A stretch of 39,572 nucleotides of DNA. Origin: Nemertoderma westbladi (taxonomy: Eukaryota > Animalia > Xenacoelomorpha). The position numbers and the translations under genes were made by a program. The DNA lies in the NCBI GenBank assembly GCA_032718475.1, contig JAUCBJ010001962.1, forward strand, positions 1 through 39,572, in the 5' to 3' direction. This document shows positions 1-34,835 of the stretch, piece by piece. The notes under the pieces were generated by a model. That model searched no databases. It was not told the origin of the DNA and was given only the letters and a program-made list of their open reading frames with translations. The number at the start of each line of letters is the position of its first letter. The stretch's first letter is position 1.

Positions 1-984
1 AATGCAGCATGCCGATCCTAGTAGTAGGGCCGTCCGTCGCCCTCGGCCTGTGGCTGGCCAGCAACATCGGTACGTCGACCGCCGCTGTGTGTCGACTCGT
101 CTCTCTCTCCTCCCAACTCGTCCTCTCGCTGTTGTAGACGGACCCCCTCCATTTGGATTGCCGGATCGTTCGTCGACGGATCCGGCGTCGTGGGTCGATG
201 CCGTCTCGCCGTGGCCTCGCGGATCGTTAGATCGCCGTCCGGGGTCCGCGGCGGTGTCGTCTTTTCTTCTCGACTCATCGCCTTTACTTTATCACTTGGT
301 GGCTGGCAGTCACAGCTTGGGTTTCGGAGTTCTATCACTGTTAGGGCAGGCTGCTAGGATTCTATCACTGTGACGGGATCCGTGGACCCCGATTTATCCG
401 TGTGGGTTTTCCTATCTACGCGTCCCCGCCGTGTGTGTGAAAAGGTTCTTTAAGGGTTCCAAAGTTCTTGATTGATATGAAGGTATATGGGTAATATGAT
501 ATAAGCACAATTAACCAGGGTTAAAGTCAGCAAAGATGTACTGGTAAATAGGTGTTACATATAGTGGCGGTAGTGGACGGTGATAGAAGTCACCATTCCA
601 CCCTAACTGAACTGACTGAGTAAACTGAGCAAGTAACACAGTTACCGGTAATATTATACTGCATGGTTGGCCGCATTATCCTACTCAGCCAATGTCTTCC
701 CCCCATTGGCTAGTAACCTACTTCACACCCTCTGTCCTGCGGGGGTGTTTCCCCCCCCCCCCCCCCCCCACCCCCCCCCCCCCCCCCGCTGCTGTTACTT
801 TCCTCTCTCTCAGGGGTGTAACCCCTGACCCCTGTTGTGTGTGTGTTCTCTGGGGACCTATTGTCCCCGTTTACTGGGGTGACACGAGGTTGATTGGTAA
901 TCAACCTCGTGCTCCCAATATTGCTTAGAGGCGCTCTTTCCCACTTTATGGGGGTTTGGTGAGGCGGAATTGAATCCGCTCACA
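1..984 (-). mobile_element. BEL/Pao family A copy A0: 5' LTR plus start of internal region (runs off the window)
   Basis: LTR homologous to those at 5517 and 24609. The internal part encodes TTPPRTPD...TDVAGQPQAEGDGRP (ORF 18..338), nearly identical to the 25262 ORF of copy A2. Confidence 0.85.
369..984 (-). repeat. LTR of family A (copy A0), TGTGA...TCACA
   Basis: Minus strand starts TGTGAGCGGATTCAATTCCGC at 984 and ends GATCCCGTCACA at 369; same termini, poly-G tract and internal blocks as the other two family A LTRs. Confidence 0.9.
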
Positions 985-4639: not shown

Positions 4640-4842
4640 CTGTTTTGGACACTTTACCCCGGTGTTGCAGTAAAAACTATTTTATTTTGTTGACCCAAAA
4701 ATGGAATATAGCAGGTGGGGTCGCTAGCGACCCCATGGTACTTAACGTAACTTTTTTTCGCGGTAATTAGAAGGTTAAACTTTAATCAATTATATCAGTT
4801 ATATTTACAAACAAACATAAACAAAATATAACATTAGCTTGT

Positions 4843-5516
4843 ATTATATTATCTGAGTTCCTACAGTATATATCAGTTAAATTATATTAACTGAGTTCCT
4901 ACAGTATATATCAGTTACATTATATTAACTGAGTTCCTACAGTATATATCAGTTACATTATATTAACTGAGTTCCTACAGTATATATCAGTTACATTATA
5001 TTAACTGAGTTCCTACAGTATATATCAGTTTATATTAAATGAGTTGCAACAGTATATATCAGATACATTATATTAACTGAGTTCCTACAGTATATATCAG
5101 TTACATTATATTAACTGAGTTCCTACAGTATATATCAGTTACATTATATTAACTGAGTTCCTACAGTATATATCAGTTACATTATATTAATTGAGTTCCT
5201 ACAGTATATATCAGTTACATTATATTAACTGAGTTCCTACAGTATATAGCAGTTACATTATATTAACTGAGTTCCTACAGTATATATCAGTTACATTATA
5301 TTAACTGAGTTCCTACAGTATATATCAGTTACATTATATTAACTGAGTTCCTACAGTATATATCAGTTACATTATATTAACTGAGTTCCTACAGTATATA
5401 TCAGTTACATTATATTAACTGAGTTCCTACAGTATATATCAGTTACATTATATTAACTGAGTTCCTACAGTATATATCAGTTACAACATATTAACTGAGT
5501 TCCTACAGTATGTATC
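4843..5516 (+). repeat. 38-bp tandem repeat (~17-18 copies)
   Basis: Unit attatattaactgagttcctacagtatatatcagttac repeated head-to-tail with no spacers; about 1.5 more units at 22108-22164. Confidence 0.95.
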
Positions 5517-6114
5517 TGTGAGCGGATTCAATTCCGCTCACTACCCCCATAAAGTTGGGAAGTGGCGCCTTTTTCAGCAATATTGGAGATACAAGATTGA
5601 TAACAACCAATCTCGTATCACACCCAATAATGGGGATAACATACACCCCAAAAGCCACACAAAGGGAGGTTAGAGGTCAAACCACCTCGAGAGGGCAGAT
5701 AACCAACAGCGGGGGGGGGGGGGGGGGGGCACTCCCACAGAGGTGAGAGGCGTGAAGTAGGTCATCAACCAATGGGAACCGGGGAAAAGTATCCACTGGA
5801 CAAAGGCCAAAGTAATGTAGGAATGAATACATATATTATCCCATTACCGGTCAGTTACCCAGTTTACTCAGTCATTCAGATCAGTGCAGACCGGTGATGT
5901 TTTTCACCATCACCGTCACCATCACCGATATCCTACCTACCGGTATACAATACACATATATTATCCATCACAACTGTGCTATCATTGACTATTCATTTCA
6001 TTGATATTAATTACTAAAGGATCAAAGAGATAACAACAAACTTTTCCCATTATTCTCAATATCACGGTGACGCATAGTTCGACAAACCGGTTGGGATCCC
6101 TTGATCCCATCACA
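5517..6114 (+). repeat. 5' LTR of A1
   Basis: TGTGAGCGGATTCAATTCCGC...GATCCCATCACA; TATA-like ATATATTA at ~5831 followed by TCAGT initiator-like motifs. Confidence 0.9.
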
Positions 6115-6142
6115 GTGAAAAACTCCCAACAACCCACAAACT

Positions 6143-8319
6143 GTGACTGCCAGAGGGGAGAATGAGCACAGGACAACAACGAACAGGACGATACCAACGA
6201 AACGATCCGTGAGGCCGCGACGCGACGGTACTGACCTGCGATGCCGGATTCGCCGACGAGAGACAATCCGGCAGTCCAAGCGGAGGGCGGTCGTCTACAA
6301 CAAGGAAGGGACGAGTCGACGCACGACGGCAGTTGAAGTACCGAATATGGGAATTAAGTTAGTGGGTTGGGCAGATCCATACGAGGGCGAACCCGAGGTT
6401 AACCCCGAGGATTCGGTCTCGTCAGTTAGCGAGAACCCCAGAAAGCGGGGGAAAGTTAGTAGAACAGAGAGGCGACGGGAGTCCGTCGCGACCGGTAAGT
6501 CCGCTACATCCTCCGCAAAAGCAAGAAGGGTGTTAGAGATAGATCTGGCGTGTCAATTAGATATGGTGGCGCTAGACCAGAAAGAATTAGAGAGGCAGTT
6601 GGACGAGGGAACTGCGTTGTTAGAGAGAGAGAGAGAGTTGGCGAGGGAGTGTAGAGAGAGGGCCGAGAGGGTGGCGAGAAATTGTAGAGAGCAAGAAGAG
6701 AGAGAGATAGAGGAACGTAAAGAGCGAGAGACGAGAGTAGAGAACAAGCGTAGAGAGCGAGAGACGAAAGTAGAGAACGAGCGCAAAGAACGAGAAGTAA
6801 GAGAGGCAGCGAGGGTGGAGAGAGAAACGAATGAATATAAAGAGCGAGAGTCGAGGGAGGTAGCAACGGCAGAGAGAGAGATGAATGAGCATAGAGAGCG
6901 AGAAGCGAGGGTAGAGAGCGAGCGTAGAGAGCGGGTGGCGAGAGAAACAGAGTTGGCAAACCAGAGTTTGCGAGAGGATAGAGAAAGAGAGAGGGCGGGA
7001 AAGCAAATGTGGGATGATATGCATGCCCAGTTGAGGGGGCTTATGCAATATCAGGCAAAACAGAAGCGCCGACTAGAACTGGCGCAGTTGGGACTATCAG
7101 AGAGTGAGGCTGGCTCGGGTAGTATTTACGAGGAGCCAGAGGTTATGGAAACGTTTGTTAATATGATGATATATACAATGATTTAAATCCGAACGATCCT
7201 AATTTAAATAATCCAAATAATTCAAATAATAATCTAGATTCGAATATGCAAAGTAATTCAAATAATTTAAATTTAAATACGCAAAATAATCTAAATAATA
7301 ATTTTAATTCAAACAAACAAAATAATCCTCGATTCCAATCTAAATATACAGAATAATTTAAATAATAATCCGAATTCAGAACATAATTCAAATAATTTAG
7401 AAAACAATCTTGATAATGGTGCTATTAATATAAAAGCGGCAGATGTAGGTGGTCCGGCCAGCGAGAGCCTGCGAGGCCACATAATTAGTAAGCAGGGGGT
7501 AGCAGGAGTAAGAGACCCCGATGGGAGCCTGGAAGGCCACGTAGTTAATACGCAGGGAGTAGCGGGGGTGAGTCGACCCGACGGGAGCCTGCCTGGCCAT
7601 GCAGTGATAGAGGGAGAGGCGGGGGTGAATAGACCCACCCACAGTAGAGATAATGCGTCGACTAGAGAGGGGCATAGAGATGAAGCGAGAGATAGTGAAG
7701 TGATAGGTGGCGAATGGGGGTGGGGGGGGGGGGCTACAGGCGCCACACAACGAGAGATTAGCGGCGAGAGGGGGGGGGGGGGGCAGAGAGTGTCCCACAG
7801 GCGTCGGCGGCGGACAATGCGCGGGGCGAGTTAGGTGAACCGCAGCACCCGGCGACGGAGAGTAATAGGGGGATTACGAATATCCCCAGCGGCGTGCGAC
7901 CGGCTAGTGAGTGGGAGGTTGGCGTCGCGAGCGGGCGAGCGACGAGACGTCGAGCCCAGTCAGAGGAGGGAAGAAGAACAGTGGAGTTTAACCGGTAGGT
8001 CAACGAGAGATCTCACGAGCGGGGACACTATACTGAAGAGAGAAGAAAAGAAGAGAGTGGAAGAGGCGTTGCTGCGAGCGACCGGAGAGCGAGGACAGAC
8101 AGCGAGCCATCAGTAGTTGAGATGGAGTTGGAGAGTCAGTGGGGTCGAACTCCGGGAGATTGCCGTCACCCCAGAGAGACGCAACCTGGCGAGGTGTACT
8201 ACACGCCGAGAGAAGGGTACATGGCATACCAGTACGAGGACGAGAATAGAAGAGGGGATCGGAGAGAAACTCCCCGACGGGATATAGCTGCCGATCGAGG
8301 GTACAGTAGTCGCGGGGAG
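6143..8319 (+). pseudogene. gag: Degenerate gag N-terminal region of A1 (PEDSVS motif, E/R-rich coiled coil, Asn-rich tract)
   Basis: ORF 6143..7186 has VNPEDSVSSVS (typical of BEL/Pao Gag N-termini) and a long coiled coil; frameshifted continuation; closely similar to 25808-27330. Confidence 0.7.
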
Positions 8320-9509
8320 TGTTCGCGCTTTCAGACCTTTAGCAGTTTAACCTGCCAAATTGGGATGTCTTCTAGATAATAGATCGTCTTTAGCCTATGA
8401 CAAGTATTTGATACACTACATTAGCCGAAGCCAGTCTATGCGCGATCATTCACCCGCTGGATATACCCGGGAGACTGGATTCGGGAGCCTAACCGTATTG
8501 CGGGGTAGGCCTACTGTATTATTCGACTGATCGTAATATATAATCTCTGACAAATATTATTCACTTTCGGGAAATATTAACAGTTCCTTTAGGACGTGGC
8601 GCTCTAAATATATAAACAGAGTTATGACTAAAACCAGACACAACGGGATGGCTATAGATTCACATATATGGCGCATTCTTTAGGAGATGCTTCGTTATCA
8701 ATCACGATCATACACAATACTGCACAATGCTGCACACCAATCTGCCGACCTTCACTAATTTTAGTCACATATAAGGAGAACAACAGACAATACGTGTAGG
8801 GCCTATAAAATAGCATTAGATTCACTTCAAACCACTTAATGTAAGTCGCAATTGTTATATGTAACCGGTCTCTCTAACCTTTAGTATATCAAGAAGATTG
8901 GGGTGTCTGATTATTTATCAGTATTCCAAATATAATATTCCATCAACAAATATAATGAATAACCGACAGTAAAAGCAGCAAATTGTTAAGGTATAAATTG
9001 ATATGATCGCTTTGTTAAGTATGTCAGTATGGTATGATTTGTTAAGTTAAGTGAGTTATGTTAAGATAACGGATATACGTTCTATAATTAAGCCTACTAA
9101 TGTTGAGCTAAAGACTGAAACACGGAGGTTCCACGCCGGTGTTGTAGGCTGTGGACAAATCACATACTGACTCAACTCCACGAGTTTCTATATACAATCT
9201 CTAACACAGAGGCAAAAAACGCTCTGATTGGTCGACCGAACAAAGAAGGAACAGAGAACAAAGAAAAGGTCCACGTATACAGCATCAGCTGTTAGCCGTC
9301 GTCATGGTAGCTACACTGTTTACAGAGGATTTGGCGCATTGCGTCATAAAATTGCTAATCATGTCCGCTAAAGTACACATACAGAAGAAATAGCTTTTAT
9401 GTCCTCTAAAACAACAGTACAGTAAGGACACGGCCTTTTATGCCTGTTAAACCAACTACAGAGTACTTTACGGGGAAAATAACCGGCTAATTACTCAAAA
9501 GCCTTTACA
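8320..9509 (-). repeat. 3' LTR of element B (1190 bp)
   Basis: Direct repeat of 20162-21355; about 13 substitutions and one 4-bp indel by eye. Confidence 0.97.
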
Positions 9510-9587: not shown

Positions 9588-12500
9588 TTAGTCTTTCTTA
9601 CGCGGACGGCGTTTACGCAGTTTTTTGAGGCTAGCAAGAGTCCTCTTCTCTTTGGGGCGAGCCACCTTACTAGGAGGGCTGTAACTCCTGGGTGAAGGGT
9701 GCAATACAATTGCATCAGAAGGTTTAGGATTACGATCGGTGTATCCTCCGGTCGAGGTACCTGGTTGATCGATATCAACTTCAGTGGAGCGAGGTCTAAC
9801 GGCCTTTAGGGCGCGTCTTAGGACAGCAGCTCCTACGGGTCCTTGACGGGTCGTCTGGACAATGGCGGTAGGCGGACCGTGAGTGGTGAGAAACTTCCTT
9901 GGTTTAATGGTTCTTTCCAGCTCGCGTTCTCGGGCTCGATATTCGTAGGGCCGTCGAGATACTTCCTGTAACTCAGGGTGCGAGTTGATAAATAAATCGC
10001 CATACTCAGGGTCTTGACGGATGTAATTGATCAAATGGTATGAAGTAATATCCTTAGGATTGACGTTCCTAAGATATTTTCGAACAAATTTGGTGGAAAT
10101 ACACTCACCAACACGCTTCATTAGTTCGTAACTCGGTGTGCGTGTTTTTTGTTCCACAGACGCGAATAAATAAGGATGGAACGCGTAAACTCCCTCGTAA
10201 GAGCGTCCAGGGTAGTAGTGATGGCGGGCCTCACAATGTAAATCCGCGTTCACTTCCCAAGCTCGGATGTAGCGCAGGGTAATCATCTCATCTACGCTTT
10301 CTAAATCGCAGTTAAAGGGGCAATTATAACTGGCATGTCCTTTAAGTTGACAGTGGTGACATTGGGTCATAAATTGGGGGCAGACTGCAAAAATATGCGA
10401 GTTATTAAGTCTGCAATACGCACAATAGATCTCCATCATCGGCTGTTCGTGGAAATAGGAGCAGGGTACATCTGAGTCCATAGGGGTGAAATGGTCTCTC
10501 AATGCGCATAATCGACAACGTTTTCGAGAAACATAGTTGGCGTGTCGATAATCGTATGCGGTGAGACATTGTGGACCTTGATACCACTCCAAGACGTAAT
10601 CGTTATCGCTGCTCCGGGGCGCTGTAGGCTGGATCGCTTCAGACTCTAAGCAGATTGGTTTGTCTTCCAATTGCATAGCTGAGGTAGGTGCGGCTGTCTC
10701 CGCAAGCGGACCCACTGTCTGAACTTCCACGACAGAATAACCCGTGGGTATTCGGGGTCTTTGTATAACAGATGAATGTAAGTTCTGTACACAAACGTCC
10801 TGAAAGAGAGCAAATCCCGCGCTGTTTAGCTTCTCCGCAGCTGAGTCTCTTAGGCTGAGTTTGGTCAGAGCGCGGTCCTTGAACTGACTATCAACGTTAC
10901 GGAACGGAGTCAGAAAGCGCCTGAAACATTCGAAGCGGATGAATTTATTGTGTTCATCTAACTTGGCGAGTTTGGTTCCAAGTATTAATGGATGGGCGCG
11001 TATGGTACGACTGCACACATCGGCTAGCCAACCGGCAAGTGCTGCGTTTTCAAAGATCGTGTATATAGCTAAGGAGGGACGAAGTGGAACACTCATAAAG
11101 CTATACACGGCGCCAGGTGCGGTCAATGGTCCATCAAAGTATAAACGAGAATAATGATCTCCATATACTTGTTGGTAATTTATAGGATTTCCAACCTTGA
11201 AATTCCATCCGTATTCTTGAAAGGCAAGATGTCCGATGGAGGTTCGTTGTACTTTAGTAATGCCGCTGGGTGTATTGGCATACATAGTGCGGAAGAAACC
11301 TCGGCCTTCTGCCCAGGGAGCAATCAGCTGAGTATCCACGAAAGGGTATGGAATGTTCTCCATATTCCGAAAGTCGTTTTGTAGATCTCCATAAACAGCT
11401 GAGCCGATTTTAAGGATTCTTTCGTTAAACAACATCTCGAGCACGGGCTGGGGTAACATCGATCCATCGATACCCATGGCCGGTTTGCGCTCGGTGTCGG
11501 CGATGTAACGCTGCGCGAGCTCGAATTGTCCATGTCGGAGTTTCTTTTGCGTCTCAGTAAGAATTTCAAAGGAATAATCAATCACATCAGAACACGCTCG
11601 AGTAAATATGTGGGTAGAACCAGCGAGTCCTCGTATGTGTGTCATCCGCGTAGTTCCCAGTTCTCTAACCGGAACGCTACCTTCGTTGTCGTAGGTGACA
11701 ACTCCATACATCTCGATAACGTTAAGAGTCTCATTCCACTCTTTAGTGGCGTTTTCAAGGGTCATTCCCACAGGATGCCACAAGGTAGCGCATTCGCTAG
11801 CATTAGGTAGGTCTCTATACTTTAAATATTGTGTGGTATATGTTTCCACATCTCCATATCGTTGTATTCTTTCCTCCTCGAATAACACGTCAAGATTCCA
11901 GTGTACTAAACGAGTTTTGATGAATCCATCAAGATTATACGGAGGTATTGTTTCTTTCTCTATTCTGGAAACATTGTATGGTTTTTGAAATGAGTTTATT
12001 TTAACTAACTGATCCAGATGTTTATGCAGTTGTTCGAGTTCGACAAGATTGAGAGGATTTATGAGTGGTAGAAACCTCAGACTATGTGTAGGATCTTCCG
12101 GTTTTATCATGTAATATTGTGTTAGGTTGACGTAATAAGGGTGATCTTTGATCCCATAAAACGAGTCCAGTAAAGGTCTAGCGCGTATGTTTACATCGTG
12201 TACCATGCGACGGACAAGATCCGCTCTATTTTCCGGAGGTTCAACGAGTATACCATCGACACGAGCGGCTTCGATGGGTGGACGTTGCAACATGGGAGCG
12301 TCAGCGATAAGATCTCTAGATCTTAGGTTGATATCAACCGGTTGGGGTTGTATCGTCGCAAAGAGTTTGTCTCCGAAATGGGGAACCATCGAGGGATGAA
12401 GGATGGTTTTAGAGTAGAGATCCGTCATAAGGATTTGAGCTTCGGGTTGAGCTAAAGCTGCTTCTTCTCTCTCATCTAGTTCTATATGTCTCTCCTCGAG

Positions 12501-13535
12501 CTGATTTTCCTCTGCTTGTTGTTGTAGACGCTCATCTAGGAACTCTTGTAAAGAGTAGGTTCGTCCACGTTCGATGTCCTCCTCGAGATTTTGTATTTCT
12601 CTATCGAACTGGGGTAAAGCTAATTCCTTCACCGCTTGGACTTGTTGTTGCAATTTACGTTTCTCCAAACAATCGTAAGTTCCTTTTCCGATTTTCTGCC
12701 GAATAGCGTCTAACGCGTTTCGTACGACGCTCTCTTCGACTTCCGTAACGGGTTGTATCGAGGTGAAGCCGGGACGGTTGTGTGGGTTAAACGGCGATAT
12801 TAGATGACCGCATCCCAATCCAGCTAGGTAGGGTTGGCGAATATCTAGCGAGCCTACTACCGGAGTACCACCAATCAACTGTTTGGGTAACACTAGATCT
12901 TTGAACAGTGAGTACAGTTCGGGAGGATCCGTGATACTATTAGGATCAAGAGTCTGAGGTCTAACTGAGGAATGAGGAGGTCTGACCGAGTATTCCGGAA
13001 CTCTGATTATTGGTTTGTTCAAGGATCGTTTGAGTCGAGCAACCGTAGGGGATACGTCGAACAGGTTTCGCTCGAAACTCCCATAAGTATATCGTGTAAA
13101 ACTGTGTTTAGCGCAACGTCTCCGCGGATGTTTATGTCTTTCCGTTTGCTGATTGGGTCTAGGGCACTCGTCGCAGTAATACCAAAGACGCACGTCCTGC
13201 AGGGGAAACGCGGGTGATCGTTCTCCAGTTTTACAATATTCCTCCATCTGTTCGAAGCTATCTGGGACGACAGGTAGCGGTCGATCGGCGGTGAGATACA
13301 TCATAGTGAAATAGAGTCGTTTGAGTTCTATCATAGGGTCATGATGTATACCTTGGGGATATCGAGTTTCGAGATTTTGTTGACTGGCAATATTGAGGTA
13401 TGTCTCTCTCAGGAATTCCAGATAATCATTGAAGTCGCTGCGTTTATCCGGCTCTTCAACGTCTTCCCTTTCGAGTTTGTTTCGAATAGAGTTCTCGTGT
13501 TCGCTATGAACGCACAAATTCAACACAACTGCCAT
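9588..13535 (-). CDS. Accessory ORF of element B, 1315 aa: DEDD(y)-type 3'-5' exonuclease plus three CCHC zinc knuckles
   Basis: Uninterrupted ORF. ExoI VVTYDNEG, ExoII region LPQPVLEMLFNERILKIGSAVYGD..FVDTQ, ExoIII-like PLRPSLAIYTIFE. Knuckles CRLC..H..C, CAYCRLNNSHIFAVC and CHHCQLKGHASYNC; basic C-terminus. Confidence 0.85.
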   Translation of the reverse strand: MAVVLNLCVHSEHENSIRNKLEREDVEEPDKRSDFNDYLEFLRETYLNIASQQNLETRYPQGIHHDPMIELKRLYFTMMYLTADRPLPVVPDSFEQMEEYCKTGERSPAFPLQDVRLWYYCDECPRPNQQTERHKHPRRRCAKHSFTRYTYGSFERNLFDVSPTVARLKRSLNKPIIRVPEYSVRPPHSSVRPQTLDPNSITDPPELYSLFKDLVLPKQLIGGTPVVGSLDIRQPYLAGLGCGHLISPFNPHNRPGFTSIQPVTEVEESVVRNALDAIRQKIGKGTYDCLEKRKLQQQVQAVKELALPQFDREIQNLEEDIERGRTYSLQEFLDERLQQQAEENQLEERHIELDEREEAALAQPEAQILMTDLYSKTILHPSMVPHFGDKLFATIQPQPVDINLRSRDLIADAPMLQRPPIEAARVDGILVEPPENRADLVRRMVHDVNIRARPLLDSFYGIKDHPYYVNLTQYYMIKPEDPTHSLRFLPLINPLNLVELEQLHKHLDQLVKINSFQKPYNVSRIEKETIPPYNLDGFIKTRLVHWNLDVLFEEERIQRYGDVETYTTQYLKYRDLPNASECATLWHPVGMTLENATKEWNETLNVIEMYGVVTYDNEGSVPVRELGTTRMTHIRGLAGSTHIFTRACSDVIDYSFEILTETQKKLRHGQFELAQRYIADTERKPAMGIDGSMLPQPVLEMLFNERILKIGSAVYGDLQNDFRNMENIPYPFVDTQLIAPWAEGRGFFRTMYANTPSGITKVQRTSIGHLAFQEYGWNFKVGNPINYQQVYGDHYSRLYFDGPLTAPGAVYSFMSVPLRPSLAIYTIFENAALAGWLADVCSRTIRAHPLILGTKLAKLDEHNKFIRFECFRRFLTPFRNVDSQFKDRALTKLSLRDSAAEKLNSAGFALFQDVCVQNLHSSVIQRPRIPTGYSVVEVQTVGPLAETAAPTSAMQLEDKPICLESEAIQPTAPRSSDNDYVLEWYQGPQCLTAYDYRHANYVSRKRCRLCALRDHFTPMDSDVPCSYFHEQPMMEIYCAYCRLNNSHIFAVCPQFMTQCHHCQLKGHASYNCPFNCDLESVDEMITLRYIRAWEVNADLHCEARHHYYPGRSYEGVYAFHPYLFASVEQKTRTPSYELMKRVGECISTKFVRKYLRNVNPKDITSYHLINYIRQDPEYGDLFINSHPELQEVSRRPYEYRARERELERTIKPRKFLTTHGPPTAIVQTTRQGPVGAAVLRRALKAVRPRSTEVDIDQPGTSTGGYTDRNPKPSDAIVLHPSPRSYSPPSKVARPKEKRTLASLKKLRKRRPRKKD

Positions 13536-14033
13536 AAACTGTACACATTCGGGCCATTTGTCCGTTAGTCAGTACCTTCCAGAATGTCACTTTATTTATT
13601 ATGTATCCTTGGATACTAGCAGTGCGCTATTTATTCCCTATGCTATTCAATGGGGTAAGCCTTCTATTGTTCTTTTAACTCACTTCTAATTCTAGCGTGG
13701 TTGTTGCCATGGTGACATTATGGAAAGCTAGCGGTAGAATTAGGGTAATTCTCATGCATACAGATCTGGGATGCTATTTAATAGTAATTCTTTAATTGTC
13801 AATATCCTCTCTATATATGATTTTATGAATTTTATCGGCTATTGACTATATATTGGAGATTCTCGCACACTAATACACTTAATAGAGTGAATCTCCGCTC
13901 CCATGATCTATTAATTAATGGAATTTTGGGAATGTTATAAATTGTATAAAATGACAATTTATTAAATTCATTGAAATATATGAATTTAAATTTATTCCCG
14001 TAAATTTTATTATTTAATGTTAAATAGACACAA

Positions 14034-14845: not shown

Positions 14846-15195
14846 TTAAGTTGGGGAGTCCCTAGATGTTTGTTGGATTAGGGAGGTGGTCGTAGGAAGA
14901 GTATCTTGCCTCCCATAGTTTCCGGAGAGTTCTCTGTCTCTTTCCAGTAAACATAAGCGACCAACTGGGCGATTGAGCTGCTGTGTCTCGAAGACAATTC
15001 CCGGTTTCTTGAAGTTACGTCGCATGACGACGAGTTCTACCGATCGCACCAAACCATCATCCGAGATGTGAGTCTCGATGATACGACCTGTCTGCCACCG
15101 CTTACGTGGAAGATCTACATCCACAATAAGAACCATGTCTCCAGCGCTGACGTTTTCTTGCTGCGCAAACCACTTAGTTCGAAGTTGTAGCGTGA
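14846..15195 (-). pseudogene. pol: BEL/Pao pol C-terminal remnant (DUF5641-like integrase tail)
   Basis: TLQLRTKW..GDMVLIVD..PRKRWQTGRIIETHISDDGLVRSVEL..RPVGRLCLLE. Confidence 0.9.
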
Positions 15196-16889
15196 ACTCT
15201 GATATTCATGAGACTTACCTAACCAATCTAATTGTCTACAGATCTCTTGAATCTCATCGGAAAACTCTATTATCCCGCTGCTAATGAACTTTCGGGGCGC
15301 TACTAATTTCGCATACAAATATTTAGCTATATTATTCCTATTACCATACCTGATGTTTAGTGTATCCCAAACTTGTCTTAATCCGTCTGGATGTCCAATA
15401 AACTTTAACGCCATTAACTTGGGAGATCCTTCCAAGCACTCGATGAGGAATCTAAGTTTCTCTCCATTAGATAGTACAGAGTTCTGTATGTTATCTTTAT
15501 AATATTCATTAAAAGGTAACCATTTCATCTCATCTCCATTGAACTTGACTATCTCTCCCACCTTTACCGCTTGACGTGCTTCGGTTCTAGCCATTTGACG
15601 CGTAAAACTTTCTTGGGCCATCGTGTTATTCAATATCGAGTTATCGGTATATAAATTTCTCGGATTATGATCAGGTCTATAGGGAATATCATTATCAACA
15701 GGTCTATAATTACCCTTAATAGGGTTCACTATAGGAGTTTCTACTTCGCTAGCAGTATATATGCGTGTAGGCTCCACACATTGCGCATGAGATACTTCAG
15801 ACCTAACAGGTTGACACATTGTTACAGGGGGTGGTGGTATACCTCGTTGTGTATTTACTAATTTATATCGCTCTAAAGCGATACTTTGCTGCACTTCTTG
15901 CAACTCTAACCTACTTTCCCTTACTGTGCCCTTGAATTGCTGAACAGTCTCCTGCATCTGCCCGAGCAGGAGATCCATCCCCCGTCGTCTCTCATCCACC
16001 CACTCGACCGCCGAAGCGGGAGCCGCCAACGTTGTAGCGGGCCGACGAGGGACAACGGGCAACAAATCATTAATATTTCGCTCGGAGTCCAGGACATGAG
16101 CATTTTCAAGGGTGGTTCTGTGTGGCACAGATAGCTTAGTGCTGTGCAGAGGGAATTTAGAGGTAGGTTCAGGGAGTACAGGTGTCTCTATCACCGAAGG
16201 AGTGGCTTCGGGAACAGGCCTAATTATTTCAGGCTCATCTACTATAGTAGGGAGTCTTTCTATTTCAATTATTTGGTCTGTGGGTTCTGTACTACCTAAG
16301 TTTGTGTTATTTAGTTGCTTTCTAACAGCTGGGGGCAAATCCGGCAATTTCTGGCGGTGGGATATTCTTCTACGTCTGCTTAGGCGAGATCGATTTCCTC
16401 CGCCTTCAGGATCGGTGGTATCGCCTTCCTCAGATATGTATTATATCCCTGTCTTTTGGGAGTTGATCGACTCATCATCTGCATATTACTAGCTGTTAAC
16501 TGTTTATTAAAGTTGTCTTGCTTCTCTTGGAGATTTTCCAACTCTAGTTGGGCGATCTCTTCAGCCGCTCTCCGTTCTGCTTCTGCCACCGCTATCTTTC
16601 TTTCCGCTTCTGCCGCTGCTGCCGCTTTTGCCTCCGCTGCTGCCGCTTTTGCCTCTGCCGCTGCTTCTGCCGCTGCCGCTTTTGCCTCTGCCGCTGCTTC
16701 TGCCGCCTTTCTTTCTGCTTCTGCTTCTGCTGCTGCCGCTGCTGCTATCTTTCTGTCTTCTATACGTTTTTTCTTTACTTGTTCTTCTAAGTTGAGTTGT
16801 TCATCAAATTTAGCTTGGTTCGCAGCTCTCATATCCACATCAATGGCGTCCAACACGCTGGGTTCCTTCACTATTAGGGCTAAGTCCAT
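15196..16889 (-). pseudogene. gag: gag of element B (Ala/Glu coiled coil, DUF1759-like capsid), frameshifted and C-terminally deleted
   Basis: IVKFNGDEMKWLPF..LSNGEKLRFLIECLEGSPK..WDTLNIRYGN; frame change near 16445; zinc knuckles absent. Confidence 0.85.
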
Positions 16890-19810: not shown

Positions 19811-20149
19811 GTCTGTACAATCTGAGCAGGCTTACACGCCTTCTGCTCAATGCTGGCCTACAAATAAATAAAACTGACAGAAATAAGTAAGCTCCAAAAG
19901 AAACAAGGGGTGTACAGTCCCTAATCTCTTAAACAGCCTACCGGTATACAATTTCACAATCGAATAATACTGCTGTACCTGTACTGCTGTAGGTACCGGT
20001 CCGGGTGGTTAGGTAGTCAGGCCTACTAGGTACCGGTTAACCGGTACTTCAGCTTTATTGCCTACTGCAATACAGAAGCGTATATCCGTTATTGTTCTTA
20101 CCAGAACAATATTAAACTGTATTTATTGCCTACACCGCAATCCGAACTT

Positions 20150-20161
20150 TATATCCGTTAT
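20150..20161 (-). promoter_or_regulatory. PBS position of B (ATAACGGATATA), non-tRNA, complementary to its own LTR
   Basis: Abuts the 5' LTR end; reverse complement of LTR segment 20912-20923; no TGG start. Confidence 0.75.
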
Positions 20162-21355
20162 TGTTCGCGCTTTCAGACCTTTAGCAGTTTAACCTGCCAA
20201 ATTGGGATGTCTTCTAGATAATAGATCGTCTTTAGCCTATGACAAGTATTTGATACACTACATTAGCCGAAGCCAGTCTATGCGCGATCATTCACCCACT
20301 GGATATACCTGGGAGACTGGATTCGGGAGCCTAACTGTATTGCGGGGTAGGCCTACTGTATTATTCGACTGATCGTAATATATAATCTCTGACAAATATT
20401 ATTCACTTTCGGGAAATATTAACAGTTCCTTTAGGACGTGGCGCTCTAAATATATAAACAGAGTTATGACTTAAACCAGACACAACGGGATGGCTATAGA
20501 TTCACTCACGTATATGGCGCATTCTTTAGGAGATGCTTCGTTATCAATCACGATCATACACAATACTGCACAATGCTGCACACCAATCTGCCGACCTTCA
20601 CTAATTTTAGTCACATATAAGGAGAACAACAGACAATACATGTAGGGCCTATAAAATAGCATTAGATTCACTTCAAACCACTTAATGTAAGTCGCAATTG
20701 TTATATGTAACCGGTCTCTCTAACCTTTAGTATATCAAGAAGATTGGGGTGTCTGATTATTTATCAGTATTCCAAATATAATATTCCATCAACAAATATA
20801 ATGAATAACCGACAGTAAAAGCAGCAAATTGTTAAGGTATAAATTGATATGATCGCTTTGTTAAGTATGTCAGTATGGTATGATTAGTTAAGTTCAGTGA
20901 GTTATGTTAAGATAACGGATATACGTTCTATAATTAAGCCTACTAATGTTGAGCTAAAGACTGAAACACGGAGGTTCCATGCTGGTGTTGTAGGCTGCGG
21001 ACAAATCACATACTGACTCAACTCCACGAGTTTCTATATACAATCTCTAACACAGAGGCAAAAAACGCTCTGATTGGTTGACCGAACAAAGAAGGAACAG
21101 AGAACAAAGAAAAGGTCCACGTATACAGCATCAGCTGTTAGCCGTCGTCATGGTAGCTACACTGTTTACAGAGGATTTGGCGCATTGCGTCATAAAATTG
21201 CTAATCATGTCCGCTAAAGTACACATACAGAAGAAATAGCTTTTATGTCCTCTAAAACAACAGTACAGTAAGGACACGGCCTTTTATGCCTGTTAAACCA
21301 ACTACAGAGTACTTTACGGGGAAAATAACCGGCTAATTACGCAAAAGCCTTTACA
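20162..21355 (-). repeat. 5' LTR of element B (1194 bp)
   Basis: Direct repeat of 8320-9509. Minus-strand TATATAGA (~21040) lies ~26 nt upstream of a TCAGTA initiator-like motif (~21014). Confidence 0.97.
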
Positions 21356-21360
21356 GGGAG

Positions 21361-24608: not shown

Positions 24609-25155
24609 TGTGAGCGGATTCAATTCCGCCCACCACCCCATAAAGTTGGGAAGTGGCACCTTTCAGTAATATTGGGGATACGAGGTTAATCCCCAATTAA
24701 CCTCGTATCACACACCCAATAAACGGGGACAACAAACCCCGAAGGGCCACACAAAAGGGAGGTCAGAGGTTAAACCTCCGGGCGGGGAAAGTAACAGCAG
24801 TGGGGGGGGGGGGGGGGGGGGGGGGGGCAGGGAACGCATCCGCTAGGTTCAATGGCCATAAGTAATGTAGCTAACCAATATATATTACCGGTCAGTGCCC
24901 ATCACAATTTCAGTTATCTCAGTTATTCAGGGCAGTACGGTGACACTTTATACCATCACCGCCGTCACCAATTATTATCTATATTACCGGTCAGACACTG
25001 TGCTATCTGTTATCTGCTATCTTTGTATACTATAACCACTACTGTCAGAGTTTATCAATAATATCGGAACAACAAACTCTTTCTTTTCCATCACACGGTG
25101 CAGCCTGACGCGTAAATAAACCAAAACCCAGTCTGGATCCTCTGATCCCGTCACA
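24609..25155 (+). repeat. 5' LTR of A2
   Basis: TGTGAGCGGATTCAATTCCGC...GATCCCGTCACA; TATATATT at ~24879, TCAGTT at ~24910, AATAAA at ~25116. Confidence 0.9.
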
Positions 25156-25261
25156 GTATAAAGTCACCGACTGGCCTAGTTACTCAGTTACTCAGTACGG
25201 TCACAGTACGGCTACTGACCCTAAAGAACTGTGACTGCCAGCCACCAGAAGGATAGACAGG

Positions 25262-27330
25262 ATGAGCGAACCCCGAGACTTAGAGGGAGAGACGACACCA
25301 CCGCGGACCCCGGATGATACGAACGAAATGATCCACGTGGCCGCGACAAGACAGTATCGACCCCAACACTGTCTACCAGAGCGGGAGGAAGAGTCAACGC
25401 GCGACAGCGCACGAGGTACCGATGTCGCCGGACAGCCACAGGCCGAGGGCGACGGACGGCCCACCGGAACGGCGACGGTGCGGCCGCCGGTACGATGCCG
25501 AACCAGGAGGGGAGAAGGAAAGATCGGCGATGAGGACGTCGGAACCAGCGACCGGCTCCGACGAGCCTACAACGCAACCAAGAAACAACTCAAGGAGGCT
25601 AGGGAAGGTGTAAAGATAGATCCAGGAAAGTTAAACCAGCGGCTAGGTGAGTCGAACAAACACTTTAAATACCTAGTTCGCTTCGGGCAGGGAGAACTAG
25701 CCAGTGAGAGAGCGAGGGGGGTCGCCACCGAACTATTTGAACTGTGGCGATCCAGGATTATGGAGCCCCAAGTTGTGTACATAGGGCCGTATTTAGTGGA
25801 TGCGAGGGGTATTAAGTTAGTGGGTTGGGCAGACCCGCACGAGGGCGAATCCGAGATTAACCCCGAGGATTCGGTCTCGTCGGTTAGCGAAAATCCCAGA
25901 AAGCGGGGGAAAGTTAGCAGGACGGAGAGGCGATGGGAGTCCGTCGCGACCGACAAGTCCGCTACATCCTCCGCAAAAGTAAGAAGGGTGTTAGAATTAG
26001 ATCTGGCGTGCCAGTTGGATATGGTGGTGCTAGACCAAAAGGAGTTAGAGAGACAGTTGGAAGAGGGGAGTGCATTGTTAGAGAAAGAGAGAGAGTTGGC
26101 GAGGGAGTGTAAATAGAGGGCCGAAAGGGTGGCGAATGAGCGTGAGGCGAGAGAAACGAGAATAGAGAAAGAGCGCGAGGAACGAGAGATGAGAGCAGAG
26201 AAAGAGCGCAAAGAACGAGAAGCGAGAGAGGCAGAATTTGCGGACCAAAGTTTACGGGAGGATAGAGAGAGAGAGAGAGCGGGGAAGCATATGCGGGATG
26301 ATATGCATGCCCGGTTAAGGGGGCTTATGCAATATCAGGCCAAACAGAAGCGCCGATTGGAACTGGCGTAGTTGGGGCTATCAGAGAGCGAGGCTGGCTC
26401 GGATAGTGTTTATGAGGAGCCAGAAGTTATGGAAACGTTTGTTAATACCCCACTTACAGGGACCGGACGACAGACCCAAGACTGGTGTAACCGTATGGGC
26501 GGGGGTTGTGGGGGGGGGGGGGGGTATTAATAATACGTTAGAGAATGTTGATATTAATAGTGCCGTAGTGGATAACCCTAATCAAACTTTCATTGCAGGA
26601 AATAATATTTTGCCTGATTATTGCAATTTAAATCCGAACGATCCTAGTTTAAATGTAGAAAATAACTCAAATAATAATATAGATTCGAATTTACAAAATA
26701 ATTCAAATAATTTAAATACGCAAAATAATCTAAATAACAATCTTAATTCAAACGAACACTCTAACCAAAATATAGAAAATATTTTAAATAATAATCCGAA
26801 TTCAGAAAATAATTCTAATAATATTTAAATAATTTGGAAAATAATATTAATAATGGTGCTATTAATGTAAACGCAGCTAATGTAGGTGGTCCGACCAGCG
26901 GGGGCCTGGTGTGCAGGGGCGTGCTAGTGTGCAGGGAGTAACGGGGGTGAGAGACCCCGAGGTGGGCCTGGTAGGCCACGTAGTTAGTACGCAGGGAGTA
27001 GCGGGGTTATCATTCCGACGGGAGCCTGCCAGGCAACGCAGTGATAGAGGGAGAGGCGGGGGTGAATAGACCCAGCTGCAGTAGAGTTAGTGCATCGACT
27101 AGAGAGGGGTGTAGAAGCGAAGTAAGAGATAGTGAAGTGATAGGTGGCGAGTGGGGGGGGGGGGGGGCTACAGGAGCCCCACAACGAGAGATTAGCGGCG
27201 AGAGGGGGGGGGGGGCAGAGAGTGTCCCACAGGCGTCGGCGGATAATGCGCAGGGCAAATTAGGTGAACCGCAGCACCCGGCGATGGAGAATAGTAGGGG
27301 GATTACGAGTATCACCAGCGGCGTGCGACC
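25262..27330 (+). pseudogene. gag: Degenerate gag N-terminal region of A2
   Basis: Homologous to A1 6350-7900 (INPEDSVSSVS, coiled coil, Asn-rich tract); stops at 26114 and 26369; capsid and knuckles deleted at ~27330. Confidence 0.75.
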
Positions 27331-30300
27331 AGCTGATGCTGGTCGACAGTGGAGCAGCCTCCACATTGGTCGAGAATTGGGTGGCCGAAGAGATAGGATT
27401 GAAGACGAGGCCAAGTAGAATGGCGGTAACAACCATCTCCAGCAAAGATGAGGTCCTGGAGATGAGGACTGGACGGTGCGGGATAGCAGCGATAGCACCG
27501 GGATGCGATTATGGGGCGACAATCAACCCCATCCAGGTGATAGAGTCGATAAATATCAATGCCAGGCGACCAACCAACATCGAGGTCGAACAATATAGAT
27601 TCCTGGACAGCATCGACTTCTCAATACCAGAAGTGGACGTTAGGAAGGTATCCATTATAGTAGGAATGGACTGCCCGACGGCCCACGAGAGAATGCAGAC
27701 GGTCTTCGGTGAAGACAGACAGTGTGACCCGGTGGCGATTTTAACACCATTCGGGTGGATGCTGAGCGGCCCAATCAGAACCAAGATACCGTTTAGGATG
27801 TCGGAGACATCAGGATGCATGTTCGCGGGAACTATGCGGGAGATGGAAGATCAGGGAGCGGAGGAGCAGCTCAGGAGACTGCTTAGGCAGGATTTTGAGG
27901 GTTTTAAAGAGACTGGGGTCGGAACCTGGGCAGAAGATAAACAGGCTATGCAAAGCATAAAGGAGTCGATGAGATGCGATGAGGGGCGGTACACCATAGG
28001 GATGGTATGGAAACAACCAAAATTACCGTTGCCCGACAACAAAGGAATGGTACTCACGAGGCTTCGTAAGTTGAAGCAAATGCTAAAACGAAGCCCCGGA
28101 AAGAATGAGTACATTCATAGAACTATAAGAAAGTATGTCTAGAAAGGATGGGCCGTGGAGTTACCGGTCGACGAACCGAAAACGGACAGGACCTATTACC
28201 TACCACTTCACGTGGCTTTAGACCCGAAGAAAGGTAAACTGCGGATGGTAGTTGACGCATCGGCCAAGACTAATGGCAAATGCCTAAACAATTATCTGCT
28301 AGAGGGTCCCAACATCTACAACTCAGGGATCGAGGTCCTACTCAGATTCAGAAACGGGAGGCATGCCTTCACTTGTGACATGGAAGGCATGTTCAACCAA
28401 GTCCGTGTGACGGAGGAGGATAGCGACAGCCAGCGCTTCCTATGGTACAACGTCGACGAGGAACAGTCGACAATACTGATGTACAAGATGGTGGTGCAGA
28501 ATATGGGGCCCAAGTCGTCCTCATTTACGATGACTGTGGCTGTAAGGGACACAGTAGAGGGGAAAGAGGAGAGTTACAGTGCCAAAGCCGTCGATATGAT
28601 TCGACGCGGCTTCTATGTAGATGACGGGATGGAGTCTGGAAACACGGTTAAAGAACTACTGAATACAGGGCGCGAGGTTCGCGACATCCTGAAAGGATCC
28701 GGGTTTAACCTGACCAAGTTCCAATCCAGCTCGGAAGAGTTTATGAGAGCCATAGAGGACAGGAGGCCAGAGTCGACCATGGATAATCCCACGACAGCCA
28801 AGGGACAGGACATGGCAAACAATAGGGTAGAGTCCCAGCAGAAGGCATTAGGGATCGTGTGGAACTGAGAGACAGACGAGTTCAAGTACCAGCTGAGCCA
28901 GGAGGGCGCGGACATCCACACAAAGGGGGGCTATGTATCGTATGTAGCAAGGATATACGATCCCCTAGGCCTAGCATCCCCACTATTAGTCATGGGAAAG
29001 CAGATACTTAAGAAAGTATACAAGCTAAAGGACGAATGGGATACAGAGGTCCCGGAAGAGATCAGCAAGCAGTGGAGCAAGTGGACAGAGAGTTTAGAAC
29101 AGATGGGGACATACAGCATGCCACGCGTGTATTTCCCGGATGGGGACATAACGAATCTGGATCTGCATATGTTCTCCGATGCGTCATTGGAAGCATATGG
29201 AGCGGCACTCTACCTAGTACAACGAGAGGGGGCCCATAAGCCCAGACTTGCATTCAGCAAAGCAAAGTCGACGCCCCCAGATTCAGCATTGGTCCCAAAA
29301 CTCAAGTTGACAGCTGCGAGATTAGGAGTAAGAGCCACAGCATACTTGATGGACACTATTCCCAACATAGTGGAAACATACTACTGGACGGACTCCATGG
29401 TAGTGCTTGGTTGGCTACACAATGAGAAGATGAGATACCCTATATTCGTCGCAACACTTTGTGGTACGCCACACTTTCTTGAAGAAGGAAGTATTGTGGC
29501 AGCACGGGCCGCAATTCCTGAACGATAGGACAGCCTGGCCACCGATGAAGAAGGTGGACCCGGGCTCAGAGGAAGTGGTATTAGAGGAAGAGGGAGGAGA
29601 CTCAGAAGGTGAAGAAATAGTCAAATGGTGAGGGAGATCAGGGACGTGCAACCAAAAATGGAAGAACTATGCGATAACCCGATGGACAAACTCCTCAGCT
29701 ATAGCTCAAGTTGGTACAAGACCAAGAAGTTAGTGGCGTAGTAGAGAGCCTTCGGGAATTTCCTCAAGGGAGTCGGTAAAGACACCAAAAATAAACCAAA
29801 CATCGATCTGGAGGGAGCGGCCAAGGCTGTCATTCGTTACGAACAGGGAAAGAACTATGGCGAGGAAGTGGAGCACGTCGGTAAACAACAGCATCTCCGT
29901 CGGGACAGCGAGCTTATCACGCTGTCGCCACAACTTAATGAAGATGGGATCTTAGTAATGAACTCTAGAGTGCTAAATAACAACAGCCTCATTTTTCCTC
30001 CAAAACCCATCATCATCCAGAATAGATCGCCGATAGTCCACCAGATCATCTGGGACTCCCACAAGTCAATATTGCACGGGGGCACCAACCGGACTCTCAC
30101 GGAGATAAGGAGGACCTTCTGGATCACACAGCTAAGGAAGAAGGTGAAGGCGGTAGTGGGGCAGTGCCAGACCTGCCAACGGACGAGGAAGGAGCGGGCC
30201 ATACAGGAGATGGCGCCATTACCGGCCTTAGAAAGGTTCAGAGACCGCAAAGGTGGGACGATCGCAGTAATATACTCCGATAATGGAACCAACTTTGTGG

Positions 30301-30986
30301 GGGCGGAGAACGAGTTGGCAGAGGCCTTGGACATCCTGGAAGGGGAGGAAGTCAGGGCAGCCATGAGGAGACGACAGGTGAAGTGGGAGAGGAGGACGCT
30401 GTATGCTCCGCATACTCTAGGATGCATCGAGAGACTCGTGGGTAGTTCCAAGCGTCTGATGACGAAGCTGATGAACACCCACATTGTGACAGAAGATGTA
30501 CTAAGGACGGTACTAGCTAAGTGCGAGGGTATCATTAATAGCAGACCGCTATACCCAGAAAATGATGACCCAGAGTCATTAGATGTGCTGACACCCAGTC
30601 ACTTTCTAATGGAGAGGTCGGCGACCATTGACATGCGGGGTGTAGACCCAGACGATATATACTCCCGACAGAGTTGGAAAGTCGCTAAGGCGATAAGCGC
30701 GGAGTACTGGAGGAGGTGGGTCGAGGAATATCTACCCACACTTCATAGGAGGAGCAAGTGGAGAAATACCACTAGGGAGTTGAAGAAGGATGATCTGTTG
30801 ATCGTCATGGACGATACCATCATCAACAACCAATGGAGATTGGCAAGAGTAGTGGACACTTACTCCGATGAGGACGGAAGAGTCCGATCGGTAGAAGTGC
30901 AGATAGGTGGAAAGATAGGAGCGAAAGATAGGAAGACCTACAGGAGGGCTGTAGGAAAATGCTGCCTGCTAAAGGGCGCACCGTAG
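27331..30986 (+). pseudogene. pol: BEL/Pao pol (aspartic protease, RT, Pao RNase H, integrase, DUF5641-like tail)
   Basis: LVDSGA; YYLPLH..KLRMVVDASAK..LNNYLLEGP; CDMEGMFNQV; FYVDDG; LHMFSDASLEAYGA; H..HGG..CQTC; YSDNGTNFVGA; WRRWVEEYLPTL..DGRVRSVEV. Several stops and frameshifts, and an in-frame deletion in the integrase core at ~30224. Confidence 0.95.
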
Positions 30987-32092: not shown

Positions 32093-34080
32093 ATGGCGGA
32101 GAAACTTGTCCAAAAGAGAAAGGTGGAGTTGGGAGGAAAGGAGATACTGGTGGATTTCACCGAGAGGCATCCGGAAGAGAAGACAAGGGGATACTACGAG
32201 CAGTTAGAGAGGGGTCACAAAGCGCGAGCGCTGTAGGACCATTTCAGGGAGGTGCACGAACAGCGGCTGGTCGGGACCTACGGGACACCGTTGCTAGATA
32301 ACGCAATCTTCAAGCATTTCCACTACGTGGTGAAGGGAGACGAGGCAAAGTTTGGGATACCGAAGTATCCAAAGGAACCACCGAGAAAGGACTGGAAGAG
32401 GTTCGTAGAGTCCGTCAGCAGGGGAGGATACATGGTCCTAGATGATGAGGGGACCGTGGAGGATGAGGAAGGTTTGAGGAGAGGGTCGGCGGGGTCGGCC
32501 AGAACCATACTCCTACATTTCGCCACGCCAAATGGGGACATTTTTCTGTTCGACCTGGGAACGTATGGGAAGAAGAACGGGCCGAAGTTGAACCGGTTGC
32601 CAAAGGCGGTGCAAGCCCTAGTAAGAGAGAAGACGACGATAAAGGTGGGATCGGCGATCCGCGATGATGCGGAGAGGATCATCAGTCCGGAGACCCACAA
32701 CCTCCTGGACATGTAGACGGTCTACATGGCTATAACAGCACCAGGCGGGTTGGGGCTAGTAGAGAACGCAGGCCATTGTGGAGCGGTGGTGATGGGCCAG
32801 CTAATGGGGCTCGTGTGTCAATTCAGAGAGGAGTATGGTTGGCGAACTCGCTGAAGTGGGGAGCGAGACCAGGGAAGCAAGAGGTCTATCAATTCCGGAG
32901 AGGAGCGATAAAGGTATATCAGAAGCGATATATCCTACAGGAGGACTGGATAATGATAGGTTTGCTAAACCTATTCATGACCGTGGTTATCGAGAGAGAA
33001 CCAATGGCATTCCTGCTATCGGGATCACCCCTGAACTACAGAAGAGCCTTCAAAGTGGCTTTCGAGGGTCTGGTAGACCACCCGGGGCTGAAGGGCGAGT
33101 CGGTATACTATATCTGCCGATATCTAGTAGATGGGGAGGTGGATACGCTATATCAGAGGTGGGAACAGCTAGAGGCGGATAGACATGAGGCGAAGCGATT
33201 GGAAGAAATCGCTAGGAGAGAAAGGAGGGAGGCAGAAGAAAGGGAGGAGGAAGCTAGCGCAGAGAGCTATGGATTCGAGGAACAGGCGGCCTTAGACGAG
33301 CTACACTGGACATCAGGGAGTTCGGGCGAGTCTCTAGGGCGAGAATTGGGGTGGACGGTGGGATCACCGAAACAGTCGACATCGGGATTGCAGACGACGC
33401 CCATACCAGCGGGCGCCAAGGGCGATTTCGCACAGAGGAGGCCAGGGGAACTGGAAGGATGGAGTCACGGGCGAGAGCCAAGGTGGGAAGGGTCACAGTG
33501 GATCCACCGGGATACCGGGATTGGAGCCACTCGCAGAGGAGGACGAGGATGACGACAAGTTCGGAGAGATGCCGCCCATCGGGAGAATCGGCCACTCGGA
33601 CACGGACTGGGTTAGCGGGAGGGTGGTGACGGCCAGCGGGGCGAGGGCCTTTTGGGATAGACCCGGCAAGTGGGCCTGGGTGCATGAGGAGATAGACGTG
33701 GACAGGGACGCTAACATCCAGAAGTTCGCTTACCAGCGACTCCATAGACCGAGGAGATCGCTTGGGATGAAAGACGACGTGGGGCGGGAGGCATTGGTAC
33801 TCGGCTGTGATTACTGCGGGAGGCAGACTCACCAGGAAAGGAGCTGCTTGTACCGATTCCAGAAAGGGACTAGCTGTCTCTACTGCCACGAGTCGAGTCA
33901 CATGATGGGGGCATGTCCACGGTTGCACATCCGGTGTTCTAAGTGCAACTTCCGGGGGCACTACGGACGCCAGTGTGACTGGATGGACGACGAGGAGAAG
34001 TTTAGGATTTTCGAGGAGTGGGCTGATGTCAGCGCCATGACCCGACAGCGGATGAAGGCCCAGGAATTCCGGAATTCCGG
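32093..34080 (+). pseudogene. Accessory ORF of A2: DEDD(y)-type 3'-5' exonuclease plus three CCHC knuckles
   Basis: MVLDDEG; LLHFATPNGDIFLFDL; LPKAVQALVREKTTIKVGSAIRDD..LLDM; RYILQE; CDYCGRQTHQERSC, CLYCHESSHMMGAC, CSKCNFRGHYGRQC. Stops at 32234 and 32714 plus frameshifts. Confidence 0.85.
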
Positions 34081-34720: not shown

Positions 34721-34835
34721 TCTCTCCCCCTATTGGTTTTCCAAGGGCGGTGAGGCCTCCGATGAATTGTTGGTAGGATCCGAGACTGGTACATGGGTCC
34801 ACGTTTTATTGCGTTTCCATTTACCATCAGAGTGT

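Follow-up and report, generated by a model that had tools for sequence, protein, structure and literature searches.

In the ICTV account of BEL/Pao retrotransposons, replication is host-tRNA primed and poorly understood, the PBS consisting of 18 nt complementary to the 3' end of tRNA-Arg or tRNA-Gly (PMC8742986). A term search finds neither PBS nor tRNA in the main text of two BEL/Pao surveys (PMC3118150, PMC554778). Self-priming has been shown for Tf1 and predicted for Tf1/sushi, Tcn1 and the copia TAR lineage (accessible portions of PMC6317226, PMC4600332, bioRxiv 10.1101/2022.12.06.519325, PMC5006619 and PMC3601003). The complementarity of the Tf1 self-primer is 11 nt in the available text of PMC7175516, and the primer is released by cleavage by the RNase H domain (available text of PMC7175516 and PMC5341516); about half of the Tf1 cDNA keeps the PBS copied from the primer (PMC11042837, accessible part). 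For Tcn1 (Ty3/gypsy) and the plant elements TAR/Houba/Osr-1 (Ty1/copia), the accessible text of PMC6317226 derives self-priming from complementarity alone, the level of evidence reached for the elements described here. Those elements belong to other superfamilies and hosts; they show that the mechanism arose more than once, and none of them is BEL/Pao. Nothing on a self-priming BEL/Pao element occurs in the available text of PMC6088434 and PMC13524379, and no report of one was found in the accessible parts of the searchable literature, a scope that leaves most subscription journals, supplements, Repbase and GyDB outside.

The DNA analyzed here (the window) is a stretch of 39,572 nucleotides from Nemertoderma westbladi, contig JAUCBJ010001962.1. 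It contains three copies of one LTR element family (A0, A1 and A2) and one element of a second family (B); their features are collected in Table 1. All four elements are defective: A0 leaves the window, B divides A1, which breaks off near 22110, and a LINE interrupts A2. Every family A LTR has TGTGA at its start and TCACA at its end, and the last 12 LTR bases are 34/36 identical among the three copies. No copy of family A has a 3' LTR or TSD within the window, so that the LTR end is supported by the 5-bp inverted termini and by contig boundaries. Contigs from public DNA runs start at 24609 or stop at 25155, the edges of the A2 LTR, and in run X1 the summed depth drops from 3381 at 25134 to 311 at 25158. 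In that run 1953 contigs align to the 1 kb around the A2 LTR, a figure that is not a copy number and that points to many related copies. The LTR-start pattern had no match in viral_contigs and one chance bacterial match in metagenome_contigs. A 38-nt tandem repeat (4730-5516) ends at the first base of A1 and restarts at 22108-22164, where A1 is cut. A 310-aa frame with no Pfam match (23764-24696, minus strand) ends inside the A2 LTR.

Table 1. Features of the four BEL/Pao elements in the window (slot, the bases directly after the 5' LTR).
Feature	Positions	Strand	Remarks
A0 5' LTR	369..984	-	616 nt; element exits window at its start
A0 primer slot	360..368	-	9 nt, flush with LTR end
A0 LTR segment complementary to slot	580..588	-	
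A0 second slot copy	330..338	-	preceded by ACA, as at LTR end
A0 TATA-like (658) to Inr-like A (626)	626..658	-	32 nt apart; predicted start, pattern match
A1 5' LTR	5517..6114	+	598 nt
A1 primer slot	6115..6123	+	9 nt directly after LTR
A1 LTR segment complementary to slot	5899..5907	+	within loop of local hairpin
A1 TATA-like (5832) to Inr-like A (5861)	5832..5861	+	29 nt apart; predicted start
A1 7-bp hairpin, U5-IR-like	6092..6109	+	ends 5 nt before LTR end
U5-IR-like hairpin homologues	374-391 in A0; 25133-25150 in A2		
Conserved leader motif CTGTGACTG	6141..6149 in A1; 307-315 in A0; 25229-25237 in A2	+ (A1)	
A1 gag-like region	6119..8319	+	split by element B; continues at 21356, cut off near 22110
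A2 5' LTR	24609..25155	+	547 nt
A2 primer slot	25156..25164	+	9 nt directly after LTR
A2 LTR segment complementary to slot	24945..24953	+	
A2 TATA-like (24879/24881) to Inr-like A (24912)	24879..24912	+	31-33 nt apart; predicted start
A2 pol	27264..30986	+	PR-RT-RH-IN, BEL/Pao type; several stops break frame
A2 post-pol frame, in pieces	32237..34030	+	likely 3'-5' exonuclease-like domain and zinc knuckles; LINE-interrupted
B 5' LTR	20162..21355	-	1194 nt; TSD CTCCC at 21356-21360
B 3' LTR	8320..9509	-	98.6% identical to 5' LTR; TSD at 8315-8319
B primer slot	20150..20161	-	12 nt, flush with LTR end
B LTR segment complementary to slot	20912..20923	-	again at 9066-9077 in 3' LTR
B second slot copy	20079..20092	-	14-nt exact complement, within duplication of about 70 nt
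B gag (DUF1759), then integrase C-terminal DUF5641	14930..16440	-	pol deleted
B 1326-aa frame	9588..13568	-	likely 3'-5' exonuclease-like domain and zinc knuckles

The assignment of family A to BEL/Pao, made in an earlier note on this DNA, holds for the pol of A2, which has the order PR-RT-RH-IN; Pfam reads it as PR, RT, Peptidase_A17 (E 5e-40), integrase and DUF5641 (E 7e-23). Database matches of the A2 RT mostly bear PF05380 or PF03564, with a top identity of 45%. A1 has no pol and no 3' LTR in the window. DUF1759 was undetected in A2 and in the 51-aa gag remnant of A1, and is present in the B gag at E 2e-10. With the Belpaoviridae profile the window elements share LTRs of 0.5-1.2 kb with TG...CA ends, PR-RT-RH-IN, Peptidase_A17 and DUF5641, and B also shares the DUF1759 gag and 5-bp TSD. 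In contrast, the 18-nt tRNA PBS of that profile (PMC8742986) is absent, and the extra frame after pol is exonuclease-like, not env-like. The window elements are a BEL/Pao variant that departs from the ICTV family profile. Nor are they members of Tf1/sushi, where pol is of the Ty3/gypsy chromovirus type, a different superfamily; no chromodomain was matched in their proteins. A quick RT tree of 84 rows, built with no reference elements of the named groups (BEL, Pao, Tas, Suzu, Sinbad, Dan, Flow), shows A2 as a long unplaced branch.

The central observation concerns the bases directly after the terminal CA of each family A LTR. The earlier note described them as the exact reverse complement of a 9-mer in the same copy's LTR, and all coordinates and letters are correct for A0, A1 and A2. 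Nine nucleotides is also the longest exact complement of the leader start in its own LTR in all three copies; against the LTRs of the other two copies the longest is 4-7 nt. The complementary segments, said to occupy a homologous position, begin at LTR positions 397, 383 and 337 (A0, A1, A2) and do align, in columns 432-440. The chance expectation of about 0.002 per 600 bp was recomputed as 0.0012-0.0024, and 3, 9 and 13 of 3000 dinucleotide-shuffled LTRs (A0, A1, A2) contained the complement. Among 191 leader 9-mers per copy, an exact own-LTR complement occurs at offset 1 alone, besides the A0 duplicate at offset 31.

The sequences have changed between copies while the pairing has been kept, as the claim of compensatory change required. 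All 27 cells (nine pairs in three copies) are Watson-Crick, with six of the nine pairs altered on both sides, three invariant, and no G-U cell; the count covers the three A copies and carries no probability corrected for relatedness. Identity of the LTR segment between copies is only 14/27. Controls in which the pairing was slid gave 29-46% paired, and the five wrong assignments of PBS to LTR left 14-21 of the 27 cells paired. At the LTR boundary the pairing stops, again as proposed, since in each of the four elements the LTR base that follows is a C and faces an A. None of the A slots starts with TGG, nor does that of B (0/4); further in, there is no TGG within the first 100 nt past the LTR in A0 and A1, and the first TGG of A2 is at +17. 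As in Tf1/sushi elements (Tf1/Tf2 and Tj1, Ty3/gypsy chromoviruses), the PBS directly after the 5' LTR complements the element's own LTR. The 9-12 nt of A and B is similar in length to the 11 nt of Tf1 (available text of PMC7175516). By sequence criteria the feature resembles Tf1 self-priming.

A second family carries the same signature. The LTRs of B give no blastn match to those of family A, and the first 12 leader bases of B are the exact complement of LTR bases 20923-20912, a match found in 0/3000 shuffles. Both LTRs have TG...CA ends and are flanked by a 5-bp TSD, which fixes the geometry of the slot, flush with the LTR end. What the earlier note said of the signature in family A stands, but it had missed family B, with an equal signature, and also a likely difference from Tf1, namely that the segment is not at the first base of the RNA. 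The B slot starts with ATAAC (20157-20161, minus strand), the letters that the accessible part of PMC11042837 gives for the start of the Tf1 PBS, possibly by chance. The second slot copies of A0 and B each follow a copy of the last LTR bases, an arrangement to be expected of faulty second strand transfer. Inside B, ahead of gag, lies a 367-aa frame with no Pfam match (16840-17943, minus strand).

Minus-strand synthesis in A0, A1, A2 and B is thus probably primed by an element-derived RNA from the LTR segment and not by a host tRNA. Self-priming in a BEL/Pao lineage, as first put forward in the earlier note, gains support from the sequences, and none of its testable consequences failed; the priming event itself is what we infer. 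Each A LTR contains a single TATA-Inr-like pair, with 29-33 nt spacing, on the plus strand only and with CCAAT upstream; the consensus patterns used were picked after the sequence was seen. This pair precedes the segment in all three A LTRs, so the segment is predicted to be transcribed and not to lie upstream of the TSS. With the predicted +1 at 626, 5861 and 24912, the segment falls at +39..+47 in A0 and A1 and at +34..+42 in A2. In B there is an Inr-like motif at -41 and no TATA-Inr pair. The start would then lie 33-39 nt upstream of the segment, which would be internal to the transcript, whereas Tf1 is primed by the 11 nt with which its mRNA begins.

A possible series of steps is as follows. 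Transcription would begin 33-39 nt upstream of the LTR segment, and the segment would anneal to the slot; in some copies the 25-30 nt upstream, which pair more loosely, and the hairpin close to the LTR end would assist. Cleavage or trimming past the last base of the segment would generate a 3'-OH at the LTR boundary; this 3'-OH could be made by the RNase H domain, cutting as it does in Tf1, or belong to a short LTR transcript produced separately or to the copy of R at the 3' end of the RNA. Plus-strand strong-stop synthesis would copy the primer back into the slot, and a mutation in the LTR segment would in this way be written into the slot. Such copying back would explain fast drift without G-U pairs.

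Equilibrium folding of the predicted 5' RNA gives a mixed picture. In A2 the probability of the slot/segment helix is 0.21-0.99 per pair (at least 0.98 for six of the nine pairs), and it is about 0.32 in A0, 0.0 in A1 and about 0.1 in B. The low value in A0 reflects competition from the duplicate slot. Forcing the helix costs 0.3 kcal/mol in A2, 0.7 in A0, 4.2 in A1 and 3.6 in B; at -7.4 to -10.0 kcal/mol the 9-bp duplexes have little stability. Imperfect pairing in A2 is predicted to extend upstream to about 24912, with leader bases 25165-25190, and is matched by 0/500 shuffles; the corresponding counts are 69/500 in A0, 262/500 in A1 and 348/500 in B, so that the extended pairing exceeds shuffles in A2 alone. 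A three-duplex 'pretzel' like that of Tf1 was not shared across the free or forced folds predicted. The flanking duplexes of the Tf1 'pretzel' involve the LTR downstream of the primer (bioRxiv 10.1101/2022.12.06.519325, accessible part), whereas the extra pairing in A and B, where present, is upstream. Against a simple fold-back these predictions weigh most; the objection would not apply to a chaperoned fold or to a primer supplied as a separate RNA.

Two other predicted pairings involve the same region. The U5-IR-like hairpin is paired in 20/21 cells of the A copies, with one pair changed on both sides, one G-U and one mismatch. It resembles the hairpin near the U5 end of Tf1, where a U5-IR-like stem is reportedly required. 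The leader motif CTGTGACTG complements both the LTR/slot junction and the second Inr-like repeat, and its predicted pairing across the junction may represent a closed state.

The slot/segment helix could instead be structural, with a part in packaging, dimerisation or a translation switch, while some other primer acts at this site or close to it. The competing folds, the position of the A1 segment in a hairpin loop and the leader motif that can pair over the junction would all suit such a role. In two families, however, the helix ends precisely at the LTR boundary, which a structural role does not call for; a structural helix should also tolerate G-U pairs, of which there are 0/27, as against one G-U and one mismatch in the 21 cells of the neighboring hairpin. 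An alternative primer site is not evident either, and we consider this explanation unlikely.

Public DNA runs extend the sample of slots. Seven more distinct slot sequences, seen apart from their LTRs, occur in 11 of the 12 rows listed (42 in total), and in all seven variants the match to the reference resumes near 25225-25230, at the conserved leader motif. Together with A0, A1 and A2 there are ten slots; all start with GT, position 6 is always A, six other positions vary, and none starts with TGG. A tRNA site would be conserved, so this variability (six of nine positions among ten sequences) argues that the slot is not a tRNA site and rules against a match to one host tRNA. The strong variation of the slot between copies of a single family also sets family A apart from Tf1/sushi. 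In three of four runs an A is inserted behind 24949; the insertion is consistent with pairing to the deepest X1 slot variant, to which it is unlinked, and is only a hint of a matched change in the segment.

Priming by another host RNA, either a small RNA or a fragment from inside a tRNA, such as some Ty1/copia groups use, is accordingly quite improbable. It would agree with the ICTV description of the family as primed by tRNA-Arg or tRNA-Gly (PMC8742986), and half-molecule tRNA primers are known in copia (accessible text of PMC6317226). The ten slots with their variable positions, on the other hand, cannot all pair with one tRNA, and the match to the element's own LTR would be left unexplained. 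The window yields no tRNA gene with ARAGORN and no family with Rfam, and hence no sign of a tRNA primer encoded by the elements. For the C. elegans element Cer7 a different mechanism has reportedly been proposed, a tRNA-like primer that the element itself encodes.

Distant relatives show a variation on the same theme. An RT search of genome_contigs gave four loci (L002-L005) from 25 candidates, with RT 34-41% identical; none of 60 candidates in viral_contigs was a relative. The four are BEL/Pao elements within bacterial MAG records, likely as animal contamination. Pfam confirms L002-L004 as BEL/Pao, but not the single L005 frame scanned. TGG is absent at the apparent LTR end in all four. Their leaders complement a predicted GT-AG junction in the LTR over 11, 11, 11 and 12 nt (L002-L005), a match recovered in 0, 1, 0 and 0 of 100 shuffled leaders. 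Its distance from the apparent LTR end is 1, 1, 5 and 11 nt; in L004 and L005 that end is uncertain. L002 and L003 have a homologous donor; the last three exon bases differ at two positions, and the slot changes match. The LTRs of L002-L005 keep the intron, and a spliced primer would therefore come from an RNA other than the 5' end of the template. A single origin of A2 with these loci is not claimed, because the RT tree fails to place A2. In L002 (1381-1718) and L003 (1356-1806) the junction match stands directly ahead of AATAAA, and in both loci the repeat begins exactly 1000 nt from the contig start. For the window elements a splice-junction model was rejected, the unspliced match being 9, 9, 9 and 12 nt as against a spliced best of 6-8 nt.

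The complement might also have arisen incidentally in reverse transcription, through template switching or the copying of a hairpin, and play no part in priming. Duplication of the slots together with part of the LTR end in A0 and B is a sign of aberrant strand transfer. Such an accident would nevertheless have to recur at a homologous segment, with the same end base, and track sequence change, in two families and in distant relatives, and it would leave the elements without any primer site; it is very improbable. Chance matches or mis-called LTR ends can be dismissed as having a negligible probability, for although no 3' LTR or TSD of family A lies in the window, shuffles give 0.1-0.4% per copy at any position as against three copies at one homologous position, contigs end at 24609 and 25155, and the ends of B are fixed by its TSD.

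A2 and B each have an extra frame after pol. These frames are related and carry three zinc knuckles and a likely 3'-5' exonuclease-like domain, the latter a weak call. P0085 is their sole homologue among 1.84 billion representatives; the A2 frame matches it at E 3e-7 and 2e-12. The exonuclease-like reading comes from an Atlas feature score of 0.93 with 25/30 matches in the PF01612 set, from PF01612 in P0085 at E 0.2, and from a D-x-E motif identified by eye. No exonuclease domain was matched by Pfam in the window proteins and no PDB sequence matched; a single-sequence structure model had a pLDDT of 31 and was unusable. Juno/Vesta elements of bdelloid rotifers also carry a 3'-5' exonuclease-like frame after pol, a DEDDy exonuclease ORF3 (PMC5408684, accessible part). 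Unlike A2 and B, for which the domain call is weak, they are not BEL/Pao, and the terms PBS and self-priming have 0 occurrences in the available text of PMC5408684. A role for the extra frame in primer formation is speculation, and a required role is doubtful because L002-L004 show only one long frame. The 5' part of a LINE, with its endonuclease domain (34029-35969, minus strand), is inserted into the extra frame of A2.

A broader scheme, which we offer tentatively and regard as improbable in its full form, is that a broad branch of BEL/Pao swapped tRNA priming for a primer RNA that the LTR encodes and that is produced separately from the genome's template end, as a short LTR transcript or a 3' copy of R. 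The primer would be trimmed to the edge of the duplex, in A and B possibly by the element's own exonuclease-like protein, and elsewhere would be assembled by splicing. With the slot rewritten from the primer, each sub-lineage would acquire a private, fast-drifting lock and key.

If priming from the LTR segment is true, a mechanism shown only in Tf1 extends to a third LTR superfamily, in a new layout with an internal primer that varies between copies and is splice-built in relatives. The elements would be freed from the supply of tRNA and from defences that target tRNA sites, and the failure of PBS finders on many BEL/Pao elements would be accounted for. Complementarity between slot and LTR is a simple sequence test applicable to every animal genome.

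Further features lie elsewhere in the window. A DDE_Tnp_1_7 transposase (3248-4639, E 7.5e-79), which we take to be of piggyBac type, is flanked by 43-nt inverted arms at 2049-2091 and 4716-4758. A tRNA-like stretch, recognized by eye at 36556-36640 and perhaps a SINE head, gave nothing with ARAGORN or Rfam. At 36926-37640 and 38711-39301 there is an integrase fragment of another LTR element together with a repeat of about 160 nt in direct and inverted copies.
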